Below are positions 9,322-48,426 of a stretch of 64,000 nt of DNA, one piece after another. The stretch covers positions 186,001 to 250,000 of the forward strand of contig OZ024763.1 of the NCBI GenBank assembly GCA_964016885.1, given 5' to 3'. The stretch's first letter is position 1; each line of letters starts with the position of its first letter. The position numbers were made by a program, and so were the translations under genes. Origin of the DNA: Eledone cirrhosa (lineage: Eukaryota). The notes under the pieces are model-generated. The model did no database searches. It was given only the letters and a program-made list of their open reading frames with translations, and was not told the DNA's origin.

Positions 9322-9389
9322 TATTTTATTATATACATATTTCAAGGGCAACCAAGGCAAATTATGGTGCGCTTTCATCAGATAAAATA
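9322..9389 (-). ncRNA. Type I hammerhead ribozyme (diverged relative of the 8.8-kb family)
   Basis: Perfect helix I tattttat/ataaaata; CTGATGA; stem II aag-gc-acca/tggt-gc-ctt with a different sequence from the 8.8-kb copies; GAAA. Confidence 0.8.
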
Positions 9390-25862: not shown

Positions 25863-26309
25863 ATATTAATAATAATATTCGATTTGTTTGCAATTATGCA
25901 AACAGCCTCATTTTTAAAGTCATGTCAGTAGAATGAACACTTCATTCTTGCCCTTGTGTTGGCATGTAAACAGAACTGCAGACACTAATGTTTCTGGGTA
26001 TCACCCTTCATCAGTACAGCTCACTGTTCACCTGCCAAACTGTCAGAGCTAGTGAAAATATATATTTTCTAAAATATACACTGACTGATCGGCCTGATTT
26101 ACATATTAGCAGACTGGCTGATCAGTCAGATCTGCATATTAGCGGCTCCACTGATCACCCTGATTTGCATATCAGCAGACTGGCCAGTCAGTTTCCTGTA
26201 TACGAGCGATTAATGGGCGGCTTTGCCATATTTAAATTTAAAAAAAAAAAAAAATTATTGCTCTACATGGCTGAATACAATAAATGTAATCTAAGTTTTA
26301 TATATATAT

Positions 26310-33340: not shown

Positions 33341-33543
33341 TATATATATATACTAGCAGAATGGCCCGGCGTTGCTCAGGATTTGCTCTAGGGTTCTTAT
33401 ATAATTGATATATATTTATCATTATCGAGCCTCGTGAAATAAATACGTTTGTTTATATTTTGTTATTGTGTATGCAAAAATATCTGTACACAAATATATA
33501 ATTATATACATATATATATATATATATTAAAATAACAGATTAA

Positions 33544-33594
33544 AGTTTAAGCAAAAAATCGCTGCTTTCACCCTTAACGGGATCTTCTGAAACT
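33544..33594 (-). ncRNA. Type I hammerhead, CAGAAGA family
   Basis: agttt-CAGAAGA-tcccgttaagggt-GAA-AGCA..TGCT-T-aaact. Confidence 0.7.
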
Positions 33595-33662
33595 AAAAAA
33601 TCAATCTGTGAACGCAGAAGTAAATATTTCGAAAAACGCTACACACACTATATATATATATA

Positions 33663-43395: not shown

Positions 43396-43747
43396 TGGGT
43401 TGTTTTGGCAGTTTTAACAAAATAACCAACAGGAAACGGAAATTCATTACATGGCAACGCTATAGGTTTTCCTTCTACAGTAATAGTTACTTAGTCACTA
43501 CTGTTGTTGTTGGTACTGTTGGTGGTGGTGTTGGTGGTGGTGTTGGTGGTGTTGGTGGTGGTGTTGTTGGTGTTGTTGTTGGTGCTGTTGTTACTGTTCT
43601 ATTGTTATGAATATCTATATTTATATATATACATATATATTTATATCTATAAATATGTAAATAAGTTTATCCTGGGTTCAATTGGGGGTAACCACTGTAA
43701 GTAAGGTACTCAATACAAAACAGAGTATATATATTTAATATAGAAAT

Positions 43748-43798
43748 GGCTTGTACAGGACTAGAACTGTTTCATTCGGGAGAAATCATCAGGAAGCT
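43748..43798 (-). ncRNA. Type I hammerhead ribozyme (GUA site)
   Basis: agcttc-CTGATGA-tttctcccgaat-GAA-ACAG-ttctagtc-CTGT-A-caagc, followed by the tail tatactct..tattgagtacc. A related copy lies at 63.5 kb. Confidence 0.75.
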
Positions 43799-43990
43799 AG
43801 CTGTCCAAGTAATATGGTGGTATTTATATCTTTTCTGGTGGTAGGAGAGGGTGGTGATTGGGAAGGGTGGAGGTCATTGGTTGATGGGTTTAAAGAAAAG
43901 GGAATTCTTAAAGAAGTATATTTGTAAATATATATATTTATATATTTATAAATATATATATATATTTAATAATAATAATAATAATAATAT

Positions 43991-44194
43991 AAGTTACACT
44001 GGGAGATCCTAGCTAGGGCTAGATCGTATAACAGAAATAAAAGACCATGTGACCTCTGCGCCGCTGAGGCCCTGGAAATACTCTACGCCACAGACCATAT
44101 CTTAAACAAAAAATCTGAGGCAATTTCGGCTTGTAAACATAAATTGCACAAAACTTTCCTGTATTACAGCCCCACATTATACCCTAACGGATAA
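43991..44194 (+). pseudogene. Penelope-like element ORF C-terminus (GIY-YIG endonuclease tail)
   Basis: Translates as KLHWEILARARSYNRNKRPCDLCAAEALEILYATDHILNKKSEAISACKHK...*, matching the W.I...Y...CxLC..E...LN..sE...CxH pattern. Absent from the ORF track because it has no start codon. Confidence 0.8.
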
Positions 44195-44389
44195 TACGAT
44201 CTATACATGGATATTTTACGTCTCGATGTGGTAGCTAAGTATATGTTGTGTTTATACCATTACTTATTTGCATAGGTAAGTTTATATTACCTGTATGTTT
44301 TGTGAAGGGAACGTTTCCACGAACCAAAGTATCGCCTTCCTGTCTTCCTCCGGTTGTAACGTTTTTTAAAATATCCACTTCTGCGTTTA

Positions 44390-44463
44390 CAGATTGATTT
44401 TGTTAGTTTCAGAAGATCCCGTTAAGGGTGAAGGCAGCGATTCTTTGCTTAAACTTTAATCTG
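44390..44463 (+). ncRNA. Type I hammerhead, CAGAAGA family, in the PLE 3' region
   Basis: Helix I agttt/aaact is extended by cagattga/ttaatctg across a U-rich bulge. This copy has GAAG instead of GAAA. Confidence 0.7.
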
Positions 44464-44492
44464 CTATTTTAATAAATATATATATATATATT

Positions 44493-44528
<36 letters not shown>

Positions 44529-44569
44529 CGAAACATAAGTCAATTGCATGAACTCATAATCCTTTATTT

Positions 44570-44625
44570 ACTGCTATATATATTTCGATGATAGCCATTG
44601 AGTGGCTATGACCTCATCAGGCAGT
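44570..44625 (-). ncRNA. Type I hammerhead ribozyme
   Basis: actgc-CTGATGA-ggtcatagcca-ctcaa-tggctatcatc-GAAA-tatata-TA-gcagt. Confidence 0.82.
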
Positions 44626-44737
44626 TAGTCAGTTCTTAGATATGCCAGCTCTGTGTTTATGGTGTTGATTGTATCAGAGCCTTGGGACATATTAATAATA
44701 ATAAATGTGAAGACTAAAATCCGAAGAGGGCTTGATA

Positions 44738-44788
44738 AGTTTCAGAAGATCCCGTTAAGGGTGAAAGCAGCAATTCTTTGCTTAAACT
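44738..44788 (+). ncRNA. Type I hammerhead, CAGAAGA family
   Basis: agttt-CAGAAGA-tcccgttaagggt-GAAAGCA-gcaattctt-TGCTT-aaact, preceded by an inverted pLTR tail at 44692-44738. Confidence 0.72.
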
Positions 44789-44822
44789 TTAATCTGTTAT
44801 TTTAATATATATATATATATAT

Positions 44823-45012
44823 ATCATCATCATCATCGTTTAATGTCTATCTTCCACGCTAGCATGGGTTAGACGGGAAATGTCCCACTTAAGGCAAGAT
44901 TGGTCAGGAGACGTGTCTTGCTTGTTTAGGACTGTCTGGCAGGTTTTCTACAGCTGGATGCCCTTACTAACACCAACCACGTTTACAGTGTGGACTGGGA
45001 GCTTTTTACCGT
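44823..45012 (-). mobile_element. RTE 3' UTR/tail fragment
   Basis: Matches 35125-35316. Confidence 0.8.
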
Positions 45013-48018: not shown

Positions 48019-48127
48019 AATATATAACTATATATATATATAGTAATAATAATAAAATTGAAGACTAAAATCCAAAGAGGGCTCGATAAGGAAAATATAT
48101 ATCAAATATATAACAACCGCAGAGCAA

Positions 48128-48245
48128 ATATTTATTAAAATAACAGATTAAAGTTTAAGCAAAGAATCGCTGCTTTCACCCTTAACAGGATCTTCTGAAG
48201 GGTGAAAGCAGCGATTCTTTGCTTAAACTTTAATCTGTTATTTTA

Positions 48246-48255
<10 letters not shown>
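48128..48255. repeat. Fold-back of the CAGAAGA-family pLTR (hammerhead at 48152-48199, - strand)
   Basis: Inverted arms; the pLTR tail lies at 48045-48125. Confidence 0.8.
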
Positions 48256-48280
<25 letters not shown>

Positions 48281-48339: not shown

Positions 48340-48426
48340 CATTTTATTCACGACACATGTTTCAATAAGAGATAGATCGATCGTGAAGCCATGATCGATT
48401 ATCACTGATCTCATCAGGTGAAAATG
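48340..48426 (-). ncRNA. Type I hammerhead ribozyme, left arm
   Basis: cattttcac-CTGATGA-long stem II-GAA-ACA-tg-TGT-C-gtgaataaaatg. Confidence 0.75.

Follow-up and report, generated by a model that had tools for sequence, protein, structure and literature searches.

A hammerhead-like motif with adenine at core position 4 in the 3' end of a Hydra-clade Penelope-like element family of Eledone cirrhosa

The window analysed here is a stretch of 64,000 nucleotides from Eledone cirrhosa (contig OZ024763.1). It contains the 3' part of a Penelope-like element (PLE) and, downstream of the stop codon of its open reading frame (ORF), a type I hammerhead-like motif with the core CAGAAGA, in which position 4 is A (A4). 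The parts of this copy are the following.

43991..44194, plus strand: ORF end, the last 67 codons and the stop; 65 of the 67 residues are identical to residues 643-709 of the parent protein (P0001)
44195..44307, plus strand: 3' UTR exon 1, 113 bases, ending with GAAG at the splice junction
44308..44389, plus strand: 3' UTR exon 2, 82 bases, precisely joined to exon 1
44390..44463, plus strand: type I hammerhead-like motif, from a covariance-model (R1) match and sequence
44390-44397/44456-44463, plus strand: distal helix I
44398-44404, plus strand: 7-base bulge
44405-44409/44451-44455, plus strand: proximal helix I
44410-44416, plus strand: core CAGAAGA, with A4 at 44411
44417-44429, plus strand: helix II with U-U base and GUUAA loop
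44430-44432, 44433-44449 and 44450, plus strand: GAA, helix III and U17, respectively
44464..44480, plus strand: terminal part of the copy, which stops at the first of the two end points preferred by the family; (TA)n lies beyond it

The ORF end encodes the C-terminal part of a GIY-YIG endonuclease (CxxC...E...N...CxH); it is 5'-truncated and abuts (TA)n/(TAA)n. The parent ORF is a 713-codon frame that is open in 18 of 20 loci taken around N-terminal matches, with 709 amino acids from the first Met. Its protein, P0001, consists of a reverse transcriptase (RT) followed by a C-terminal GIY-YIG endonuclease in one ORF, with YRDD and YIG both seen, and it is 40-57% identical to the 120 relatives listed. 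The earlier assignment of the motif to a PLE parent is supported. The CxCX5C linker of P0001 is CNCRNRADC, the endonuclease has CDLC...E...N...CKH (CxxC and CxH around conserved E and N), and the protein also has RWR (K or R across relatives) and SDKT, i.e., DKG changed to DKT. The Hydra-clade motifs (RWK, DKT, CxCX5C and CxxC/CxH) were defined by Craig et al. (2021; PMC8557442). All of the motifs that they give are present, and by its protein motifs the element is a Hydra-clade PLE; assignment to the Neptune clade was rejected because of the DKT and CxCX5C motifs. A phylogenetic tree of 76 rows, which contained metagenome relatives only and neither a published Hydra reference nor an outgroup, places P0001 with its two nearest relatives, P0002 and P0004 (SH-aLRT 100), on a long branch. 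Pfam gave no significant match for the full RT-endonuclease protein (L086:2995-5121), and therefore such families are easily missed in annotation.

Most copies of the family have a GT...AG intron of 702-719 bases between exon 1 and exon 2. The junction at 44307/44308 reflects the precise loss of a GT-AG intron of about 717 bases, so that the window holds the spliced form. Among the loci examined, there were two spliced junctions versus 39 unspliced donors, which implies that the family mostly transposes unspliced RNA. The distance from the stop of the 43991-44194 ORF to the motif is 211 bases because this copy is without the intron; the preliminary description's figure of about 210 bp is thus correct for this rare spliced copy, but it is not the spacing of the family. 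With its intron the unit measures about 3.26 kb, and without it 2.54 kb; the order is ORF, exon, intron, exon, motif and tail, and in tandem copies the next start codon lies about 200 bases past the core. The 3' ends of insertions fall at two points, about 20 and about 110 bases beyond the predicted cut (119 and 80, respectively, of 287 copies in a non-random set), and in that same non-random set 199 of 287 finish in (TA)n at either of the two sites. ORF divergence between young copies is about 1.4%. The A4 motif was the only R1 match in 10 full-length loci, with no second, canonical hammerhead inside the unit. A search of this genome with P0002 for a closer sister family returned only the A4 family (71 scored).

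By itself, the CAGAAGA heptamer is without significance in the window (10 matches versus 5.9 expected). Four of its sites, however, are members of one repeat family: 33583-33589 and 48191-48197 on the minus strand and 44410-44416 and 44743-44749 on the plus strand, as had been reported for the copies at 33544, 44405, 44738 and 48152. The copies other than that at 44405 are the following.

33480..33643, minus strand: older-subfamily copy with core CAGAAGA; whole motif at 33531-33609
44689..44810, plus strand: separate short insertion, an inverted tail (about 44689-44739) joined to a truncated copy (44738-44796)
48040..48265, no single strand: head-to-head fold-back insertion with two arms
48040-48199, minus arm of the fold-back: tail, helix III, helix II and CAGAAGA, without the helix I 5' strand
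48198-48265, plus arm of the fold-back: starts inside helix II

The copy at 33480..33643 is 88.5% identical to the copy at 44355-44519. Helices I and III had been described as intact in the full copies, and this is true of 33531-33609, the only whole motif among the four. It does not apply to the 44405 copy, in which an additional change of A15.1 to G at 44433 leaves the helix III junction not intact, nor to the 44738 copy, which begins at the start of proximal helix I and is without bulge and distal helix I, nor to the 48152 copy, which is without the helix I 5' strand.

The covariance model R1 was built from 32 canonical Hydra-like hammerheads only (92.6% of cells paired, double changes in 10 of 12 pairs). 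It matches 44738-44788 and 33544-33594 end to end with 17.5 bits (E about 0.007) and 44405-44455, also end to end, with 13.6 bits (E 0.13), and a nearby canonical hammerhead scores 25.7 bits, above the A4 copies of the window. The pairs that can be drawn are 5 + 8 in helix I, 3 in helix II (plus the U-U) and 5 in helix III, in type I order. Rfam has no hammerhead among the 150 listed of its 294 window matches, nor within 43700-44900.

The window also contains other hammerheads. A canonical CUGAUGA hammerhead with a U-U lies at 43749-43797 on the minus strand, 600 bases away. It is a member of a different, likewise abundant family, one tail pattern of which has 7,566 exact matches, and is placed head to head with the A4 element in the same (TA)n tract. 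Additional R1 matches of 20-22 bits with canonical cores, all on the minus strand, are at 44570-44625 (between two A4 copies, with a long helix II), 48347-48422, 9325-9386 and 25976-26019; these are probably tails of other Penelope-like families. From 52215 onward, there is a long tandem array of a 38-base unit with about 150 copies that are 90-96% alike.

In the 3.0 Gb of genome searched, position 4 is A in 20,791 of the 21,018 matches with exact flanks (98.9%) and another letter in 227. The first 100 of the latter have 36 T, 38 G and 26 C (by eye), which is a scattered-mutation pattern. The distal helix, used as the only criterion, has 18,284 matches, and the 92 copies examined among them all have A4. 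So do 99 of 100 listed copies of the older subfamily, which was selected outside the motif (4,145 matches; the exception has G), 24 of 24 motif copies adjoining full-length ORFs and 43 of 45 copies joined to the 5' UTR. The core positions G12, A13 and A14, A15.1-U16.1 and H17 are each kept in 88-92 of 92 copies. Contigs from four of 20 runs, with four other organism labels, have only A at position 4, at low depth, and these contigs do display subfamily differences upstream and in the bulge. Judged by these comparisons, A4 predates the subfamily split, and the preliminary description was right to consider it the family consensus and not decay.

The 696 CTGAAGA matches are mostly fold-back junctions, with a palindrome that shows T or A at this position depending on the strand. 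Inverted copies abut 28 of 30 CTGAAGA loci (20 by script, 8 by eye) and the other two are point changes; a hidden U4 subfamily was rejected on this ground. About 700 perfect fold-back junctions are centred on core position 4, where there is a near-palindrome (L235-L264), and they mimic a U4 core.

The relatives indicate which features of the motif are unusual. A descriptor search of 79 metagenome loci with about 40% protein identity found canonical hammerheads in 53 loci, i.e., 43 distinct motifs, all of them U4, and no non-U4 motif in any of the 79. R1 adds motifs in many of the remaining 26 loci, and the 10 alignments shown are all U4. File S2 of PMC8557442 gives a similar picture for 25 Hydra families (by eye): U4 in 25, U-U in 14 and U17 in 10. 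U10.1-U11.1 closes helix II in 22 of the 43 related motifs and U17 is present in seven. Thus, as far as these motifs go, the U10.1-U11.1 pair is ordinary for Hydra-like hammerheads and U17 is common, and the description of the pair as non-canonical is not supported for this group. G15.2-C16.2, the pair at the CUU site, is absent from all 43 relatives and, by eye, from the 25 families of File S2, and in this respect the site is indeed odd for Hydra elements, but another family of this genome combines it with a canonical core. Consequently, of the three oddities claimed, only A4 stands on these comparisons, U-U and the CUU site both occurring in canonical hammerheads. Helix III plus its loop has 17 bases in the A4 family versus 8-10 in 43 of 43 relatives, so that the features special to the family are A4 and the long helix III.

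Other canonical-core families with U-U are abundant in this genome (148,467 overlapping matches versus 844 for a control pattern). An abundant family (L217-L223) combines a canonical core and U-U with a palindromic G15.2-C16.2 helix III and the CUU site; the loci examined have no ORF. A Hydra-like metagenome element (L142:1933-1978) has a U3...A8 core, a known compensated variant.

To describe conservation, a variant present in at least 8% of copies was called shared, and it marks a change in source elements. The 51 columns of core plus proximal stems have no shared variant, versus 10 in 77 upstream columns (p 0.005) and two in the seven columns of the bulge (p 0.013). An independent set (90 of 533 junction copies) has 1/67 in the motif, 2/7 in the bulge and 25/261 upstream (p 0.017 for motif versus upstream). 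Within the motif, subfamilies differ only in the bulge. The downstream tail has one shared variant in 89 columns, which differs from upstream (p 0.004) and does not differ from the motif. Because the tail is as conserved as the motif, the constraint need not act on the fold. Loops are as constant as stems, and no compensatory change or covariation was found within the A4 family; the commonest helix III variant, G15.5A (6 of 92 copies), converts a G-U into an A-U. The pattern of variants indicates that the constraint acts on the terminal 160 bases as a whole, and it hints at a role for the fold. A comparison of old and young majority sequences was set aside, as six of its columns had defined the groups.

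Folding predictions are mixed. Helix II is predicted to form, and so is distal helix I (pair probability 0.73-0.96), in agreement with the helix I extension noticed earlier. Proximal helix I is weak (0.07), the predicted weight of the hammerhead fold is 0.0008 and the folding energy is no better than that of shuffles (z -0.2 to -2.0) and does not discriminate. However, the canonical hammerheads of this genome likewise misfold in the same program, and so the low predicted weight says little. Helix III has a slipped register that is predicted at 0.58 versus 0.35 for the active one. Two helix III strands, with their GA-U-UC loop, are predicted to pair between molecules with -12.9 kcal/mol.

The insertions themselves tell something about their templates. 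With ends about 20 or 110 bases 3' of the cut, the copied RNA must span the cut site uncut. The predicted cut site is read through in 55 of 57 integrated A4 copies that reach it and in 36 of 37 copies of a canonical control family; 5' ends at the cut number two of 57 and the control likewise has no pile-up. The templates are therefore uncut in both families, and this comparison cannot rank them. In a canonical-core family (L445-L484), 18 of 40 copies have lost their 5' part up to a span of 12 bases at the helix I 5' edge, and many of them are joined to an inverted copy. Reverse transcription may stop at this ribozyme boundary, or the RNA may have its 5' end there. In the A4 family, truncation affects 24 of 100 listed copies; for about 11 of them it falls near the helix I boundary, and seven of these are exact fold-backs (by eye, from a biased pattern).

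Published work bears on whether an A4 core could cleave. Single changes in the CUGA turn all have low activity, and a second change rescues only as a C3/G8 swap; the mutants without rescue were tested in a tertiary-stabilised hammerhead (PMC9901934). According to PMC3088659, a naturally occurring U4C variant from a viroid cleaves much more slowly in vitro and yet supports viroid infection, and U-U at 10.1-11.1 is a natural and the best-tolerated mispair. In the anole element (PMC11167929), the hammerhead cleaves only with protein added, insertion persists in hammerhead-dead mutants, and its template is mainly uncut RNA. Between an active variant and an attenuated fold, the evidence, which is of sequence and prediction, leans toward the attenuated one.

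The best explanation, to which we give about an even chance, is that the A4 motif of this young and very abundant family cuts far slower than normal or not at all and is kept as a structural RNA end for the RT. U4 would have changed to A in the family ancestor and been tolerated, as transposition would use uncut RNA. A second brake may be the doubled AGC in helix III, which would let the helix slip into the inactive register. Transcription of tandem copies would produce RNA running through the motif into the tail. By analogy with the anole element, the protein would begin copying this RNA within the tail, using a (TA)n target that has been nicked. Cleavage would be unnecessary for reverse transcription, and U4A could persist for this reason. 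The core and stems, kept together with the tail, would then make up a 160-base end for protein binding and for the start of reverse transcription. The motif is placed as in Hydra elements, between the ORF stop and the tail. Some observations do not fit well: C3, G5, A6, G8, A9, G12, A13, A14, A15.1 and U16.1 are all kept, as in a cutting RNA; read-through, as noted above, is equal in the canonical-core family; and the tail is conserved as much as the motif, without compensatory changes or favourable folding energies.

Alternatively, the motif could be a working U4A ribozyme that trims tandem transcripts, with the long helix I, a contact between bulge and loop II, a dimer or a protein offsetting the loss of U4. 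We consider this rather unlikely, although the motif retains 10 of 11 core residues and each of the three helices, and the 51 columns are free of shared variants. The helix III dimer pairing is of the type supposed for Penelope hammerheads (PMC4209133), the anole hammerhead also needs added protein, and some natural core variants have an activity that is low but genuine; the natural U4C variant supports viroid infection. On the other hand, CUGA-turn mutants are poor and second changes do not rescue them, the bulge varies between subfamilies, helix III has a competing register, and no 5' ends pile up at the cut, although the canonical control shows none either. In its most far-reaching form, just as unlikely, this would be a first natural U4A hammerhead that still cleaves, turned on via a dimer or its own protein, possibly with a lock between loop III and A4-A7. 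Such a lock would keep the template whole until reverse transcription is done.

Somewhat less probable still, and in our opinion unlikely, is that the motif is a dead relic, the ribozyme having been lost once in a founder copy that hitchhiked. Its conservation would then be due to overlap with a promoter or protein-binding sequence (DNA or unstructured RNA), or to too little time. The equal conservation of motif and tail and of loops and stems, the lack of covariation in the family and the low predicted weights of the hammerhead fold and proximal helix I agree with a relic, and Naiad elements thrive without canonical hammerheads (PMC8557442). Against it, the only shared changes of the motif core, stems and bulge are in the unpaired bulge, the G15.5A variant improves a pair from G-U to A-U, and the low fold weight is uninformative for the reason given above. 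Finally, a self-locking switch, in which A4-G5-A6-A7 pairs with UUCU of the 7-base loop III until a partner RNA or protein opens the loop and A4 itself is selected, is very improbable: the four-base match is present and the long loop III is specific to the family like A4, but such a match would occur by chance in an estimated several per cent of 7-base loops, and the loop C facing G5 is changed in 6 of 92 copies.

Comparison with known systems displays both similarities and differences. Like the Hydra-clade PLEs of PMC8557442, the A4 element has a single ORF with a C-terminal GIY-YIG and the RW(K/R), DKT, CxCX5C linker and CxxC/CxH motifs, and it shares (TA)n targets, a type I hammerhead 3' of the ORF, the U-U and the common U17. 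It differs from them in A4 and G15.2-C16.2 (each in none of the 25 published families), in the 17 bases of helix III plus loop and in the 717-base intron between stop and motif. By eye, its N-terminus differs from that of Hydra-1_Obim, and three probes had no match to it in the consensus files of that paper. The metazoan PLE hammerheads of Cervera and De la Pena (2014; PMC4209133) are alike in their pseudo-LTR position, low expected activity, palindromic loop III allowing dimers, an intron near the motif and thousands of truncated copies. Their core variant is a compensated U3-A8 pair with U4 kept, unlike the A4 family, and the word CAGANGA does not occur in the searchable text of the supplement.

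The natural core variants of Perreault et al. (2011; PMC3088659) include the U4C viroid, A6C, U10.1-U11.1 and U15.1-A16.1. They are similar in that a natural change affects an otherwise invariant core position, but they are single isolates, unlike the fixed state of the A4 family with more than 20,000 copies; U4A has no occurrences in the main text. Poseidon of Anolis (Frangieh et al. 2024; PMC11167929) resembles the A4 element in that two favoured 3' ends delimit a tail beyond the hammerhead, targets are AT-rich and uncut RNA is the template. It belongs to another clade, however, and has a canonical core that cleaves with protein; its motif overlaps the start codon, and the A4 motif lies about 200 bases upstream of the start codon.

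In the literature covered on U4A/CAGANGA and on PLE hammerheads, no natural U4A hammerhead was found; the available parts of PMC11014351, PMC6765202, PMC13282606 and a retrozyme preprint have nothing on U4. The family has more than 20,000 copies and many open ORFs, despite a change at a core position that mutagenesis marks as needed. The reason that PLEs keep hammerheads is an open question, as cleavage is slow and was dispensable for insertion in the one reconstituted system (PMC11167929). The A4 family is a natural test of the role of the hammerhead, for which the canonical-core U-U families of the same genome can serve as controls. Should the RNA prove dead, cleavage is not required for the spread of a Penelope element of a kind that ordinarily carries a ribozyme. 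Should it cleave, genome searches rely on too narrow a hammerhead consensus and miss whole families, as Rfam already misses this one.
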